Source: a virus (taxonomy: Duplodnaviria; Heunggongvirae; Uroviricota; Caudoviricetes). From it: a stretch of DNA of 64,000 nt. The position numbers and the translations under genes were made by a program. Below, in pieces: positions 56,313-61,516 of the stretch (the stretch's first letter is position 1; each line of letters starts with the position of its first letter). A model generated the notes under the pieces. It saw nothing but the letters and a program-made list of their open reading frames with translations, was not told where the DNA came from and did not search any database. Location of the stretch: IMG/VR virus record IMGVR_UViG_2645727948_000011; one strand, given 5' to 3'.

Positions 56313-56592
56313 TCCACCCAGGCGTGCTGAATGTCAGATATAATCGGCATACTCAAATCACTCCTAACGATATGAGTCATCACCAGAAAATCAGGATTAA
56401 TGCGCCGGACTCTTCCCGGCTGTCACACCGAATCGCCAGGATGGTGAATCCCTTTACCCGAGAAACAACAAACGGTGGCTTGCACATTCCGGCTACCTGG
56501 TTCGTTGCCTGAGTTAGGGGCAAGGTTCCCCCCTTTTAACGTCACCAGACCGCTAACGACGCATGTGCCAGACGCCGTGTTACAACCAAATA

Positions 56593-56668
56593 TGGTGGCC
56601 CCTACCGGACTTGAACCGGTGACCGTGCGATTATGAGTCGCCAGCTCTAACCACTGAGCTAAAGGGCC
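56593..56668 (-). tRNA. tRNA-Ile (CAU anticodon, ileX-like; formally could be Met)
   Basis: 76 nt with encoded CCA; GGCCCTTTAGCTCAGTGGTTAGAGC...CTCATAA...GGTTCAAGTCC...GGGGCCACCA. Confidence 0.8.
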
Positions 56669-56695
56669 GGATTACTGCCAATTTTGCTTACGCTT

Positions 56696-57523
56696 TTATT
56701 TCACCGGAACAAACGGAACAGCGGTATTACTGGTCATATACTGCGGTAATGTACCGTTCCATTTGTTGATCGCTTCCAACTCCATAACACCGGGGTTCTG
56801 GCGCAGAGCTTCACCACGTAAACGAATGGCATCAGCTTCGGCCTGGGCTTTTGTGCGAATAGCATCAGCCTGTCCGGCAGCTTCCGCGCGCAGCATGTTG
56901 GCCTCTGCTTCACGTTGTTTGACCTCTTGCTCGCGTTGCAGGGTTTTTTGGTTTGCCGTGACTTTGGCGTTAATACTGTCAATAACTGTTGGCGGGTATT
57001 CTGGCTTACCTACATAAGAGAGGCTCATCACCTGAATGCCGATTGGCGTCATTTCTTCCTGAATGTCTTTAAGGGCTGCATCAAGCAATTCAGATTTGCC
57101 ACCGTCGATAAATTTGTCGGTGGTCATTTTGCTGGCTAACCGGTTCAGAGCATCTGCAACCTTCTGGCGTAGATCGGTATCAGTAATATCATCTACACCT
57201 TTGCGATAGGTCTGAAATACCGTTGTGACTTTTGCTGGATCAACCTTGTAGGCTACGCCGATGTGGTAACCAATGGTTGTTCCGTCGCTCATCTGGAAGC
57301 TGAACGGCTCATCGTATGTCTTCATTTGCTTAAAGGTCGGGAAGATATAAACTTCAGTATTCAAGCCTGTCCAGTAGCGACCAACGCCAACTACTTCACC
57401 GATACCTTTATCATCCCCCAGCTTATTTACTTTGATCCCTACGTTACCTGGCTCTACCCGATCGCATCCGGTCAGACATAAAGAACCCAAAATAATCGCT
57501 GCACTAATCAACGTTTTTTTCAT
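56696..57523 (-). CDS. SPFH/Band-7 family lipoprotein (possibly Plp)
   Basis: 275 aa; signal peptide plus lipobox LTGC; coiled-coil C-terminus typical of SPFH proteins. Confidence 0.6.
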   Translation of the reverse strand: MKKTLISAAIILGSLCLTGCDRVEPGNVGIKVNKLGDDKGIGEVVGVGRYWTGLNTEVYIFPTFKQMKTYDEPFSFQMSDGTTIGYHIGVAYKVDPAKVTTVFQTYRKGVDDITDTDLRQKVADALNRLASKMTTDKFIDGGKSELLDAALKDIQEEMTPIGIQVMSLSYVGKPEYPPTVIDSINAKVTANQKTLQREQEVKQREAEANMLRAEAAGQADAIRTKAQAEADAIRLRGEALRQNPGVMELEAINKWNGTLPQYMTSNTAVPFVPVK

Positions 57524-57740
57524 TAATTAATTTCCTGGTTTTTTCACGAAAAAAGACTACTGCGAAAGCCGGGTAAATGAGCGCGAGAAGGACTCCCAAC
57601 AATACAAGTATTGTGCTGTTAGATGAGATCATATTTGGCAAAAGCCAAACATACAGAACCAGTGACACAATCAAACAGAGGACGGCATAAATATATAACC
57701 GCACCCATAGCGTTCGACATTTGTTCGGATTGTTCTGCAT
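57504..57740 (-). CDS. small membrane protein (possibly Upl)
   Basis: 78 aa with two hydrophobic segments; overlaps the lipoprotein gene start. Confidence 0.45.
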   Translation of the reverse strand: MQNNPNKCRTLWVRLYIYAVLCLIVSLVLYVWLLPNMISSNSTILVLLGVLLALIYPAFAVVFFREKTRKLINEKNVD

Positions 57741-57887
57741 CCTCTCACTCCATTATTTAACGAATAAAAAAGCTGCGGTGCCGGGTGCCTCCCGGTGTCC
57801 TTTGGCTGGTTATCCACCGTGGACGGGGAAACAAGGAGAAATGAATGGACTGATATAACCATTTCCCCGCGTGCGCTTAGCCGCATT

Positions 57888-58668
57888 CACCGCAACGGAA
57901 AGAGCATTCTTGGTGGACCTGTAGATTGGGATATGAACCCGTTACAGGAGAATGCTCTTACCTGTTACGTGCTCCGTTTCGTGGAGCTAACGGCGGGTGA
58001 TCGGGCCGCACCAGGCTGGACTTATTTCAGCGTTATGCTCATGCCAGAGAATCAAACTGTGATGGTCGGTGCTGAACTCCGACACAGGGTTGTAGCAAGC
58101 CCCGCAAAGCGCGCACTACTGTAGTTGCGGCACATCAGCCTGTGCATTCACCACAATGTTGAGAACACTGGTTGTCACGCTGCAACGCAACATTTATTCG
58201 TAGATTGGGATATGACCCCGTTACGCCAGTGTTCTCAACGTTGTAGTGCCGGTTACGGTTCCGGCCAGGCCTCTTCCTCAACGGGGTGTTCTCCATACGG
58301 ACTACCGTTTATTGGTCGTTCCTGCGGTTTATGTTGTGAAGCCAGATGCTTATCTTCTGGTTGCTTCAAAGAGCTGCACTTCATCACAACGGTAAGAGCA
58401 CTCGATGCATTTAAGCCAAGCCCCATAAGGGAGAATGCCCTTACCTGTTGTGTTGTGATGACCGGTGCTGATCTCCGGCTTGCGGTTATTTCAGACTCTC
58501 ACGGGCGTTTAATTGCCCCGCCGAACAGCTCTTTTCCGCAATAGCTGCAATGTCTTTCGCGCATCAGCCTGCGCATTCATCACAACGGTAAGGGTACTTC
58601 GTAGGGATTCGAACCCTCTGCCAAGCTCGGCGATCTCCGACGTCGCAAAATACCCTTACCTGTTGTGC
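57888..58668. repeat. four imperfect inverted-repeat (hairpin) elements with a shared terminal motif, one with a tRNA T-arm-like core
   Basis: Elements ~57888..57972, 58150..58247, 58383..58459, 58577..58668; arms ATCACAACGGTAAG(A/G)G... / ...C(C/T)CTTACCTGTTGTG; the last contains GGGATTCGAACCC. Confidence 0.6.
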
Positions 58669-58744
58669 TGGTGCCGATTAACGGACTCGAACCGCTGACA
58701 TCCTGCTTACAAGGCAGGCGCTCTACCAACTGAGCTAAACCGGC
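58669..58744 (-). tRNA. tRNA-Thr (UGU)
   Basis: 76 nt with encoded CCA; GCCGGTTTAGCTCAGTTGGTAGAGC...anticodon loop CTTGTAA...GGTTCGAGTCC...GGCACCA. Confidence 0.85.
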
Positions 58745-58746
58745 AT

Positions 58747-58822
58747 TGGCGATGGTGGATGGATTTGAACCATCGACCCGTTGATTAACAGTCAACCGCT
58801 CTAACCGCTGAGCTACACCATC
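58747..58822 (-). tRNA. tRNA-Asn (GUU)
   Basis: 76 nt with encoded CCA; GATGGTGTAGCTCAGCGGTTAGAGC...CTGTTAA...GGTTCAAATCC...ATCGCCA. Confidence 0.85.
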
Positions 58823-59479
58823 ACTTGCCGGGTACGTCTCCGGCGAGGGCTTCCACCTCCGTATGCTTTTCGGCGCACCGCGCCCTGGCTGCAATTCGGT
58901 AACAGGGGATGCATAACCCTGGCTTCCAGCGTGATTAGCGCTTTCAGCATGACGGGATATACCCGTAAATTCGTGGAACTGTACCCAAAGTGCTGTTAAG
59001 CACCGCTGTTACGCTGAAAAGAAGACGCAACAGGAAAGGACGCTGACCAACAGATGGCCCCTTCTCGTTCATCTGGTTAATCACACCAGCGCCCTTACCT
59101 GTTGTGCCTCCCCGTTCCCTAATACACAGACGGGGACACTCTGCGGTCGATTTTTTGACGGGGGACGACTCATACCCCGTGGCGTCTGGCTTCTTAGGCC
59201 GCTACCATCATCAGATCATCGTTTGCATTTACTTTAATGGTCAGTTTCTAAACCGCCGCAAAGTCGCTAACCATGACGAAAACCCTGAAAAAAACGCCCA
59301 CCCGAAGATGGGCAAACTGGAAGCTCGTAACGCACTTCGGTGTTGCCACTTAGGCGTATGGTCAACCTGGCAACTCGGCGTCATGAGGGGGAAGGAGTCA
59401 CTACCCCGCCATACTTGCCGCCGCGCCTGTCGCGGCTAACAGCTAAATCGCTCTATAAATCACGATTCATTGAGGCGAT

Positions 59480-59507
59480 ATTACACTAATAAATTTATTA
59501 GAGCAAT
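59480..59507. promoter_or_regulatory. overlapping divergent C1 operator dyad
   Basis: ATTACACTAATAAATTT on plus overlapping a perfect ATTGCTCTAATAAATTT on minus; upstream, in minus-strand sense, of the tRNA/hairpin cluster. Confidence 0.7.
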
Positions 59508-61516
59508 ATTGCTATAACGTCATGAGCAACACCTCGAGTGTCCCCCTTACAAGACACAGAACGTCTGGCAAAAAGAGGTTCCACTCTGAAGCCACTGTCC
59601 TGATAAAGTTCTCTGATGTTTGGCGCGCCACTGTTAGTAATGAGAACCTTTGCACCTCGGCGATGAGCATCCGTCAACAGAGACGCCAGGCGTTTTTGCT
59701 CTTCAAACTTAAAGTCATGACCGGAATAGTTCGTGAATCCCTCTGTATTTGGGAGCGGTTCATACGGCGGATCGCAAAAGATGACATCTCCTTCTCCGGC
59801 AGCTTCAATCACCGCAGCAAAATCACCACATACAAACTCAGAACGCCCTTCCGCACCAAGGAAGGCTTCCATCTCCTGCAATGGGAAATACGGAGTTTTA
59901 TACTTCCCATAACCGACATTGAACTCACCGGCTTGGTTGTAACGCGTCAATCCGTTAAAACAATGTCGGTTCAGGAACAAAAACGCCGCTGCGCGATGTA
60001 AATCATCATAGACTTGTTTGTTAAACGCATTCCGTACTGCCAGGTATCCTTCCTGCGTGTTGTAGTCCTGGAAGAAACGATGTGCCAGAGTGATAAGTGA
60101 ATGCGCCTCGCGTTGCAGAGTCTTGTAAAAGTTAATCAGGTCAGCATTCACATCATTTAGCAGATTTTCCTGGTATCCGGCATTCATGAAGACAGCTCCG
60201 CCACCAACGAAAGGCTCAATCAGGCGCTTCCCTTCTGGCAAATAGCGAAAGATTTGTTCCAGAACACCAAATTTTCCACCAGCCCATTTGAATATGGACC
60301 GTTCGAATTCTGCCGCTGGTTTAACTTTTCGCTCTTTTGTTTCACTCCCTTCCTTCTGCCGACATGCAGCCTTGGCAATCCGATCGCCAATCCAGCGCAT
60401 TACTGGTATCGCCATACTATTGCCGATCGCTTTGTAACGCGGTCCGTCAGCTGCAAGCATCGCGGCCTCTTCTTCGCTCAAATCAGGATAGTTTTTGCGA
60501 AGGTATGCCAGTTCATCTGAAGAAACTTTTTTACGCTTTTCCGTAGGGATCAATGTATGTCCATCAGGAAAACCTTGCAGCCTTTCACATTCGACAGGGA
60601 TAAGACGGCGCATTCTACCGTCGACGAGCAATACAATTGGTGCTTCATGGTTACATGTCAAAGTTGGTGCCGAATTATCGGTTTTTATCTCAGCCCCTCC
60701 TTGCCCATGTGCCATGGCAACTATGTTTGTATCATCGCAAGATCTGATAGCGATGTTTGAAGTATATCTGGTAGTTTCCTTCCCCTCGCCTCTGCTCGGC
60801 GCAATATTCCGGCGCACGCCTTCGAACTCAAAAAGTACCGTTGCGGGATCGAGGTCTGTTCGAGCACTTGCGACAACAAACACGCGTCGGCGTCGTTGTG
60901 CCACTCCGAAGTATTGGGCATCAAGGATTCTCCAGGCCACCTTTCGCTGCGGTCCATAAATACAACCACACTGCGGCCACTTTGGAGCATGGCAACCGGT
61001 TTTGCCATCCCACCGCCAGAACGCGTTACTTTTTCCTGATTCAGGTCGATCACCTGGTTCAAATGGCGCATCTTCTCCAGCCAATCCGGCAAGGAAACAT
61101 CCGAAGGCGTTATCTGCCGATGACAGGACTCCTGGGACATTTTCCCAGACGATAACTGTCGGTTTGAGGAAGGACTCAGACCGTTTGTCGTCAATTGCAT
61201 TTGCAAGCTCCACATACTTCAAAGTTAGCGCGCCGCGTTCATCATCAAGCCCACCACGTAAGCCCGCGATACTGAATGCCTGACAAGGCGTACCCCCGAC
61301 GAGCACATCAGGGGATTCGATTTCCCCAGCCAGGACTTTTTTGGCAAGTTTTGTCATGTCGCCAAGGTTGGCGACATGGGGCCAGCGGTGCGCAAGAACG
61401 GCAGATGGAAAAGGCTCGATTTCAGCAAACCACGCCGGACGCATACCCAACGGTTCCCAGGCAATACTCGCGGCTTCAATTCCACTGCAAACAGATCCAT
61501 AGCACAGCTCTTTCAC
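59498..61516 (-). CDS. dmt: Dmt-like bifunctional DNA methyltransferase (N-terminal C5-cytosine, C-terminal Dam-like N6-adenine)
   Basis: 672 aa; [12 protein letters not shown] (PCQ) in the N-terminal half; FCDPPYEP (DPPY) in the C-terminal half. Confidence 0.8.

Follow-up and report, generated by a model that had tools for sequence, protein, structure and literature searches.

Several RNAs that are not tRNAs are known to carry part of one. Y RNAs have a long stem carrying a tRNA-like module, and in the thrS operator, transfer-messenger RNA (tmRNA), YrlA and the viral tRNA-like structures a non-tRNA RNA shows a tRNA module to a tRNA-binding factor. The species 1 and 2 RNAs of phage T4 are structured non-tRNA RNAs that are co-transcribed and interleaved with phage tRNA genes. 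These tRNA-part mimics (thrS operator, tmRNA, YrlA) and the non-tRNA stable RNAs of phage tRNA clusters are the closest concepts to the array of five long hairpins, E1–E5, described here, which lies beside the tRNA-Asn and tRNA-Thr genes of a P1-like phage or plasmid (IMG/VR record IMGVR_UViG_2645727948_000011; the whole 64,000-nucleotide stretch analysed is referred to as the window). E1–E5 are very probably minus-strand structured-RNA modules, co-transcribed with the phage tRNAs, that belong to an unannotated 'stalk-and-head' superfamily of Enterobacterales phages, the upl and plp genes annotated over them being artefacts. We are similarly confident that the heads are built from tRNA parts, namely a mimic of the anticodon arm of the initiator tRNA in E1 and E2 and a T-arm in E4 and some E5 variants.

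The window hairpins resemble the thrS operator, tmRNA, YrlA and the viral mimics in showing a tRNA module, here to a putative factor, but differ from them in the tRNA that is mimicked, in architecture and in their phage early-operon context, and no similarity was seen with covariance models. The YrlA model (RF02553) had its only match, of 25.6 bits where the gathering score is 69, across the two tRNA genes. It did not match the hairpins, nor the related type-A or type-B elements, described below, of one lambdoid locus (L026). Matches of the tmRNA model in the region were noise. The T4 RNAs were compared by description only; unlike T4-type stable RNAs and tRNA clusters, the window modules are hairpins with tRNA parts rather than tRNAs, and the decoy role considered for them below is hypothetical. 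No description of the elements was found in the literature on upl and plp, the ban operon, STnc100, initiator-tRNA mimics, tRNA-like decoys, VapC and phages, and the motif sequences themselves.

Five hairpins on the tRNA strand

Over the interval from 57400 to 59500, identity is 99.0% to phage vB_EcoM-813R1 and 98.8% to RCS47, and P1 matches with 97.8% identity over 74% of the length. The initial annotation, made from the sequence alone, described four imperfect inverted repeats here, and all four were located (arms at 57897–57910/57949–57962, 58149–58171/58226–58248, 58383–58459 and 58587–58599/58648–58660). It also reported arm motifs common to the four and a further, isolated right arm at 59092–59106. 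The shared motifs were recovered as two families of direct repeats (D1 and D3), which include a copy at 59091–59106. However, this arm is not isolated, as it forms the 5′ arm (minus sense) of E5 and pairs with 59023–59045. The number of hairpins is therefore five rather than four.

When folded on the minus strand, none of 200 shuffled sequences was as stable as any of the five hairpins (z-scores in Table 1). For E1–E4, the minus-strand fold was more stable than the plus-strand fold by 4–10 kcal/mol, which is due to G-U pairs on the strand that encodes the tRNAs. All five share a stalk of about 20 bp, CACAAC(A)GGUAAGRG...CYCUUACC-GUUGUG, with a bulge or mismatch in its middle, and the 3′ flank GUGRUGAAUGC follows E1–E4. 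The stalk is conserved while the heads vary between the five. In E1, the bulged-A stalk is topped by the helix CCUGUA/UACAGG and the apical hairpin ACGGG-UUCAUAU-CCCAAUC (57924–57942). The apical hairpin of E2 is ACGGG-GUCAUAU-CCCAAUC (58203–58221), and E2 is followed by GGUGAAUGC and a small hairpin, GCACAGGCUGAUGUGC (58130–58145). The T-arm-like sequence noted earlier in the element abutting tRNA-Thr (GGGATTCGAACCC, 58605–58617) was confirmed as a canonical T-arm, AGGG-UUCGAAU-CCCU (58603–58617), which in the head of E4 comes after a small hairpin and GAGCUUGGCAG. It is 1 nt from the 3′ stalk strand, an arrangement like the stacking of T-arm on acceptor stem in a tRNA. E5 variants of the SJ46 type have a T-loop-like UUCGAUU in the first head hairpin. 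The head of E3 keeps the motif GCUUGGC-UUAA and lacks the T-arm.

None of the hairpins was called as a tRNA. ARAGORN found only tRNA-Asn, tRNA-Thr and tRNA-Met(CAU) in the window, and the Rfam tRNA model (RF00005) at E<=10 matched the same three and no hairpin. Each tRNA-like head carries a single tRNA arm on a 20-bp stalk and does not combine a 7-bp acceptor stem with D, anticodon and T arms as a cloverleaf does. Rfam 15 contained no family for any hairpin, whether searched at permissive E-values on the region and related loci or at the gathering level on the whole window; apart from the three tRNAs and a sub-threshold match in the STnc100-like tail, the matches obtained (microRNA and plastid) were noise. 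Among five variants of E3 there were two compensatory pairs and several changes from G-U to G-C or A-U, and the few E5 variants available included one compensatory pair together with G-U to G-C or A-U changes. The evidence for E3 and E5 comes mainly from their shared design.

The initial annotation placed the array between the tRNA genes and upl/plp-like genes. This placement did not hold, as the upl and plp coding sequences, mapped onto the window from RCS47, lie directly over the hairpins, and the sequence downstream (56696–57740) contains other genes. The plus-strand open reading frames (ORFs) that had been suspected to be by-products of the repeats are upl and plp themselves, and these are probably annotation artefacts. 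Both ORFs are open in P1, RCS47 and the window, and ratios of non-synonymous to synonymous change of 0.2–0.7 are compatible with coding, but are based on 3–25 substitutions, too few to decide. Neither ORF has a Pfam match, the annotation of P7 leaves out both, and plp begins with TTG in the window and runs antisense into trnT in P1. In relatives, the two ORFs are truncated at differing points, broken by stop codons or indels, and reshuffled along the boundaries of the hairpin modules. Between the window and CMS-2020a, the substitutions in upl number 1, 7 and 9 at codon positions 1, 2 and 3, which is not a coding-like pattern. A study by CRISPR interference rated the two genes non-essential (PMC10695390). 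A conserved RNA structure on the opposite strand explains the same DNA. It is highly improbable that the region encodes Upl and Plp proteins, with the inverted repeats a mere coincidence. On the minus strand, the E4–E3 spacer contains an ORF of 25 aa, which was rejected as a gene; its variants are mostly non-synonymous, including a change from Cys to Phe, and it is not conserved as a protein.

An initiator-tRNA anticodon-arm mimic in E1 and E2

The heads of E1 and E2 have in common a 19-nt sequence, ACGGG-NUCAUAN-CCCAAUC, and a scan for this exact pattern found it in >120 viral contigs. Most copies belong to lambdoid prophages (mEp460 and Stx2a_WGPS2 among them) and lie in the early-left (PL) leader, in the stretch that separates the repressor gene from the operon's first gene. 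Here the motif tops a 20-bp stalk with two further helices. These elements and E1 and E2 are referred to as type A. A covariance model (R1) was built from nine lambdoid prophage sequences, none of them from the window. In the 64-kb window, its only significant matches were to E1 and E2 (Table 1); E3 scored 13.6 bits, but on the wrong strand, and no match was obtained for E4 or E5. The apical GGG-NUCAUAN-CCC flanked by AC and AAUC is absent from E3, E4 and E5.

An alignment of 68 distinct members (A4) had 95.4% of its cells paired, with double-sided changes at 18 of 33 pairs compared with 5.0 +/- 1.0 in shuffled alignments, none of 500 of which reached the observed number. When the partners were slid by 1–3 columns, pairing fell to 39–53%. 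Addition of the P1-type copies raised the pairs with double-sided changes to 24 of 33, the controls overall giving 4–11. The 119 G-U cells of A4 fall on the tRNA strand, and helices P2 and P3 covary. One mid-stalk position is unpaired in 67 of the 68 and corresponds to the bulged A of E1, E3 and E4 in the window. The evidence from covariation that the stems are upheld by compensatory change is strong. Together with the folds, it supports the earlier suggestion that the elements are small structured RNAs resembling tRNA in part and encoded on the tRNA strand, and the structure is both stable and conserved.

The core of the lambdoid elements, CGGGCUCAUAACCC (14 nt), is identical to positions 28–41 of a tRNA-Met gene with four copies per complete E. 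coli genome, which is established to be that of the initiator, tRNA-fMet. The hallmarks of this tRNA are three consecutive G-C pairs (29–31:39–41) and the CAU anticodon. Among the 68 members, C34, A35 and U36 are invariant, U33 and A37 are each present in 67, and the three G-C pairs in 67–68. The type-A core therefore resembles tRNA-fMet (metZWV and metY in E. coli) in its G-C pairs, U33, CAU and A37, but the head lacks an acceptor, D or T arm, and the anticodon arm instead stands on an AC/AAUC internal loop, two helices and the 20-bp stalk. The motif was intact in 81 of 85 true members, the others being three one-base variants and one truncated sequence. As these 85 were retrieved using a pattern in the 3′ stalk that excludes the motif, its conservation is not an artefact of retrieval. 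Across diverged stalks, no part of the element is better conserved than the motif with its unpaired AC/AAUC flanks. E1 and E2 (loops UUCAUAU and GUCAUAU) keep the G-C pairs, U33, CAU and A37, and 11 of the 13 nucleotides of GGGNUCAUANCCC. We estimate the chance that a random 13-mer hairpin matches one of about 45 host anticodon arms to be of the order of 1e-5. When the 7-nt loops of 479 long hairpins from the fetched loci, a set biased by the way the loci were retrieved, were scanned, the only recurring ones were CAU (fMet-type) loops and T-loops. The initial annotation missed this mimic, as well as the fifth hairpin and the identity of the ORFs as upl and plp.

A role in translation initiation would also use these features. 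In this case the type-A RNA would bind to methionyl-tRNA synthetase or to the ribosome or other initiation machinery, for instance at the 30S P site, and modulate initiation in cis or in trans. Three G-C pairs and CAU are established determinants used by the 30S P site with initiation factor IF3 and by methionyl-tRNA synthetase, and a conserved purine-rich, Shine-Dalgarno-like GGAGAA or GGUGAA follows the stalk. However, no AUG is found at Shine-Dalgarno spacing past this sequence, there are no ORFs after E1 and E2, and there is no bacterial precedent, making this explanation quite improbable.

A comparison of sequences shows that hairpin modules and real tRNA genes are swapped as cassettes among related phages. 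In the corresponding interval of P1 and P7, E4 and its spacer are missing and E3 abuts tRNA-Thr. In P7, as in D6, a tRNA-Ser(UGA) is found at the position of E1, and Ro157c2 and CMS-2020a have an extra tRNA-Tyr. In SJ46 (L009, ~1600–1700; also L087) there is a chimeric hairpin made up of the 5′ half of E2 and the 3′ half of E1, joined across the conserved motif, so that the hairpin arms no longer match. This suggests deletion by recombination between repeated modules.

This modular, recombining organization, with the SJ46 chimera and the gain and loss of modules among P1, P7, D6 and RCS47, could indicate that the hairpins are neutral relics, whether decayed tRNA genes, recombination scars or DNA elements (MITE-like, a hairpin recombination site or an attP-like tRNA copy), and many phages are known to integrate into tRNA anticodon loops. 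Decayed tRNA copies were also among the readings offered initially. However, the anticodon-arm motif is intact in nearly all members, the stems beside it covary, the G-U pairs fall on a single strand, and neither ARAGORN nor the Rfam tRNA model calls any hairpin. Strong purifying selection on the tRNA-like parts with covarying stems is not neutral decay. A near-invariant head is shared by about 27 species of Enterobacterales and by 46% of the complete genomes of E. coli, and the elements are not flanked by target-site duplications, so that neutral relics are very unlikely. A miniature inverted-repeat transposable element (MITE) or a repeat of the enterobacterial repetitive intergenic consensus (ERIC) type was rejected because there are no target-site duplications, the 3′ flank, GUGAWGAAUGC, belongs to the element itself, and the two arms change together instead of holding to one sequence. 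An origin as an attP-like tRNA-gene copy was likewise rejected, as only 14 nt match tRNA-fMet, the PL-leader element is far from int, and P1 does not integrate.

Table 1. Positions in the window of the hairpins, tRNA genes, ORFs and flanking signals
Feature	Position	Strand	Evidence and remarks
C1 operator Oban (Op72), overlapping promoter Pban	59480–59507	-	Match to P1 annotation; same dyad in all P1-like loci
Strong intrinsic terminator	59295–59314	-	Terminator scan; inside P1 'dicF-like region' (window ~59282–59383)
Hairpin E5, upstream of tRNA-Asn	~59014–59113	-	z -4.6; stalk CACAACAGGUAAGGGCGCUG / CAGCGUCCUUUCCUGUUGCG
tRNA-Asn(GUU)	58747–58822	-	ARAGORN and Rfam
tRNA-Thr(UGU)	58669–58744	-	ARAGORN and Rfam; encoded CCA directly followed by E4
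Hairpin E4	58577–58668	-	z -4.7; ~22-bp stalk with bulged A
Spacer module between E4 and E3	58460–58576	-	Small hairpins GCGCAGGCUGAUGCGC (58559–58574) and CCGGAGAUCAGCACCGG (58462–58478)
Hairpin E3	58381–58461	-	z -4.65; shared stalk with bulged A
Hairpin E2, type A, three-way junction	58142–58248	-	Model R1 36.9 bits, E 1.5e-8; z -6.5
Hairpin E1, type A	57882–57972	-	Model R1 41.4 bits, E 6.6e-10; z -4.5
STnc100-like tail ending in terminator	57774–57894	-	Rfam RF02076 37.8 bits; immediately 3′ of E1
ORF 'plp' (P1, RCS47 annotation)	58125–58544	+	TTG start in the window; antisense to E2, E3 and spacers; judged spurious
ORF 'upl' (P1, RCS47 annotation)	57933–58124	+	Antisense to E1 and the E2–E1 spacer; judged spurious

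Candidate functions of the array

The overall best explanation, which we put forward tentatively and at somewhat less than an even chance, is that these structured RNAs mimic tRNA parts and act as decoys for host nucleases that target tRNAs. Following C1 derepression, transcription from Pban would pass the leader terminator and yield a single long, untranslated precursor of the whole array. The near-perfect stalks of ~20 bp would be cut, most plausibly by RNase III, which would free stable head RNAs and separate the tRNAs and the downstream mRNA. The released heads might then act in trans on host factors that read tRNA parts, and it is possible, if doubtful, that they work against tRNA-directed host nucleases, as decoys or competitive inhibitors. 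The candidate targets of E1, E2 and their lambdoid relatives would be nucleases that cut the anticodon loop of the initiator tRNA, such as the enteric VapC/MvpT.

Early-left operons are the usual home of anti-defence functions. The anticodon loop of tRNA-fMet is the cleavage site of VapC-LT2 and MvpT, a role against host tRNases has been proposed for phage tRNAs, and tRNA-fMet is rarely encoded by phages (PMC10264068). E1 and E2 may thus be RNA decoys against tRNA-cutting host enzymes because they copy the arm in question. A decoy is favoured since conservation falls on the nucleotides that give the initiator anticodon arm its identity, the enteric VapC/MvpT toxins cut exactly there, and phages, though thought to aim their tRNA sets at host tRNases, almost never encode tRNA-fMet. 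Unlike a replaceable elongator tRNA, the initiator anticodon arm is hard for a phage to alter, and a decoy would be an alternative counter-measure. Such a role could explain why phages that carry tRNAs almost never carry tRNA-fMet. As the invariant core is the functionally critical part of the initiator tRNA, the decoy hypothesis is directly testable. In its widest form, the proposal is that enterobacterial phages as unrelated as P1-like, lambdoid and Ackermannviridae phages carry RNA decoys which show isolated tRNA parts on a common stalk, with type A a competitive inhibitor of, or sacrificial substrate for, nucleases whose cut in the initiator anticodon loop is lethal to the cell (VapC-type PIN toxins or other defence effectors). 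We regard this wider version as rather doubtful. If correct, it would be the first case of an RNA anti-defence element shielding a host tRNA through mimicry, and VapBC-like systems, or a new system, would gain a role in phage defence in enterics.

A number of observations weigh against decoys or against the mimicry itself. E3 contains no recognizable tRNA part. E1 and E2 depart from tRNA-fMet at loop positions 32 (U/G) and 38 (U), and below the three G-C pairs the conserved AC/AAUC internal loop replaces the two further pairs of the anticodon stem. The conservation of the stalk sequence suggests that some factor recognizes the stalk itself, which decoys leave unexplained. As a terminator (59295–59314) is situated between Pban and the array, expression of the array from this promoter needs read-through, and no RNA-seq covering the region was found in the P1 transcriptome literature. 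To our knowledge, VapBC is not an established anti-phage system in enterics. Finally, knock-down of plp, upl and trnT by CRISPR interference had no effect on plaque formation by P1 in a laboratory host (PMC10695390). This result fits an accessory anti-defence role but lends it no positive support.

The main alternative, which has a real though minority chance of being correct, is that the hairpins only process, insulate or stabilize the transcript, with the tRNA-like heads inherited from tRNA ancestors and having no role in trans. Processing signals were proposed in the initial annotation and are still a live alternative, or may be part of the role. The stalks would be RNase III sites that punctuate an untranslated transcript of ~1.8 kb and define the ends of the tRNAs and mRNA, and stable stalks could also block 3′ exonucleases and shield the RNA from Rho. 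The stalks are 20–22 bp with a single central irregularity and have the length needed for RNase III (about two turns of near-perfect double-stranded RNA), and cleavage is predicted. Stalks of this type resemble phage RNase III sites, for example those of T7 early RNA and the lambda N leader. In addition, E4 abuts the CCA end of tRNA-Thr, the lambdoid element lies in the PL leader just upstream of the first gene, whichever gene that is, and the stalk sequence is conserved across the head types. However, a processing site needs no head, yet the anticodon-arm motif with its AC/AAUC flanks is the most conserved part, and the covariation in P2 and P3 indicates that the architecture of the head is also maintained.

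A cis-acting role in antitermination, similar to that of HK022 put or through nut/boxA-like sites, would allow RNA polymerase to read through the terminators of an N-less early operon and the two of the ban leader. The elements, like HK022 put and lambda nut, are structured leader RNA of an N-less early operon, and a boxA-like UGCUCUU can be read in the 3′ stalk strands. Terminators are found within the leaders (at 59295–59314 and in the tail of E1) and directly upstream of the lambdoid type-A elements, the lambdoid carriers do not have an N gene in the usual position, and the segment that follows E3 is shared with the region just upstream of the N-like gene of a P22-like phage. However, the architecture differs from put and nut, the boxA-like stretch is base-paired within the stalk duplex, and lambdoid type A is downstream, not upstream, of the adjacent terminator. 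There is no sequence similarity to putL or putR; in the HK022 immunity region the type-A motif is absent even with three mismatches allowed, and putL and putR, when read directly, are unrelated. As the initiator anticodon mimic would also be left unexplained, antitermination is unlikely, though it retains an outside chance. The segment after E3 (58332–58388, minus strand) reads GAAGUGCAGCUCUUUGAAGCAA-CCAGA-AGAUAAGCA-UCUGG and is shared, at 82–88% identity, with P22-like SPN9CC (L013:2501–2557), where it lies directly upstream of the N-like gene, and with other lambdoids. Within it, a hairpin comes after a boxA-like GCUCUUUGAA, an arrangement that may represent a nut-like site.

Relatives, distribution and genetic context

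The PL leaders of lambdoid phages also contain a second element, type B, which is 131 nt long and consists of the same stalk, a GAGCAAGGCAUAA linker, two T-arm-like hairpins and one variable hairpin. In the layout represented by the type-B model (R2), the order is stalk, linker, T-arm-like H1, variable H2 and T-arm-like H3. Among ten sequences, 16 of 37 pairs were compensatory, and type B had no match in Rfam. E4 matched R2 weakly (26.4 bits, E 4e-5), mostly through the stalk. When compared with this layout by eye, E4 has a linker-like GAGCUUGGCAG and one T-arm, and neither H2 nor H3. The conserved linkers of type B are GAGCAAGGCAUAA, GAUGGGCA..GAAAAG and ACCGG. Copies were found in Stx2a_WGPS2 (L012:3131–3261), in L026 (7940–8070) and at ~20 other lambdoid loci, and type B is upstream of type A within the same PL leader.

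A further relative was found in the lytic Klebsiella phage Magnus (Ackermannviridae), where about eight long hairpins lie beside tRNA genes (L014:1–3300) and are overlaid by tiny 'hypothetical protein' calls. The hairpin at 2524–2649 is related to type B (35.3 bits) and has a P1-type stalk, CACAACAGGUAAGAGCA, and a T-arm. Another of the Magnus hairpins carries GCGGUUCAUAACCCUAC, a degenerate form of the anticodon-arm motif.

The elements are found in the leaders of early operons, upstream of variable first genes. The gene after a type-A element may encode a YfdP-like protein, an RdgC-like protein or an HD phosphatase, and it follows that the RNA is not tied to one protein; yfdP is the commonest. 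Of 5426 complete E. coli genomes, 2492 carried one lambdoid subtype (>=90% identity), in as many as five copies, and these copies were annotated as nothing or as 'hypothetical protein', never as RNA. Copies confirmed with the model were found in representative genomes of ~27 species, nearly all Enterobacterales. Exact-pattern matches outside Enterobacterales were discounted, as their number was that predicted by chance for 596 Gb; they are not tRNAs. The 117-nt spacer between E4 and E3 was 98–100% identical in lambdoid PL leaders (mEp460 and phages encoding Shiga toxin, Stx) and in Klebsiella siphophage IME207, pointing to recent exchange of leader modules between unrelated phages. An element without an Rfam family is thus common, as almost every second complete E. 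coli genome has it and it occurs in early operons of prophages that are Stx-converting. Structured RNAs would take the place of two 'genes' in the annotation of the model phage P1, and of many small 'hypothetical proteins' in other phages.

In CPS-53 of E. coli K-12, the one K-12 locus checked, the type-A element is absent although yfdP is kept. Iteron-like repeats (GATTTTGACGGGTCAGA...) are found in place of the RNA element (L313, 9247–9605). The absence from this K-12 locus may be part of the reason the element has been overlooked.

In the P1 annotation, the region is part of the C1-controlled ban operon, in which the order on the minus strand is operator Oban/Pban, 'dicF-like region', trnA (Asn), trnT (Thr), tciABC, trnI and ban. 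The C1 operator dyad reported previously upstream of the cluster matches the Oban/Op72 annotated in P1. Pban is the only annotated promoter upstream of the hairpins, and no promoter-like site was seen within 56500–59700 when promoters and terminators were scanned for. The terminator in the leader is ~190 nt downstream of Pban, and a short leader RNA may end there. Despite the 'dicF-like region' label in P1, the Rfam DicF covariance model had no match at E<=10 in 56400–59700. In the window, two ORFs (56696–57740, minus strand) replace tciA-tciB-tciC of P1. One encodes a membrane protein of 78 aa with two helices. The other encodes an SPFH/Band-7 protein of 275 aa (Pfam E 1e-30), which has a signal of the lipoprotein type (LTGC) and is labelled 'putative serine protease' in RCS47.

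At the other end of the array, the 120 nt directly 3′ of E1 align with the STnc100/PasD family (RF02076) and, like it, end in a terminator. The score of 37.8 bits (E 6e-6) falls short of the gathering threshold of 47. The match takes in positions 31–147 of the 206 in the model, and covers only the tail and none of the hairpins. The tail folds into a long-range stem, UGCGGUG...CACCGCA, followed by GCUUUUUU, the terminator. Its U-tract is missing in some P1-like relatives. STnc100 and the Pas small RNAs adjoin TerB-like genes in lambdoid prophages (bioRxiv 10.64898/2026.05.13.724894), and the hairpins are not mentioned in that preprint. The arrangement in P1, where the STnc100-like tail is followed by the TerB-like tciA, mirrors this pairing.

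Small hairpins also recur between the larger elements. One follows both E2 and E4 (58130–58145 and 58559–58574), behind a GGUGAAUGC or GUGAUGAAUGC flank, and its two copies, GCACA-GGCUGA-UGUGC and GCGCA-GGCUGA-UGCGC, differ by a compensatory change from A-U to G-C. In lambdoid type-A elements, the counterpart is a covarying hairpin whose loop reads UGCAG and which precedes the first gene. Another, CCGGAG(A/U)UCAGCACCGG followed by CAYCACA, occurs ahead of stalks in the window (58462–58478 and 58065–58083), in mEp460 (L004, ~2515–2535) and in phage Magnus (L014, ~2300–2330).

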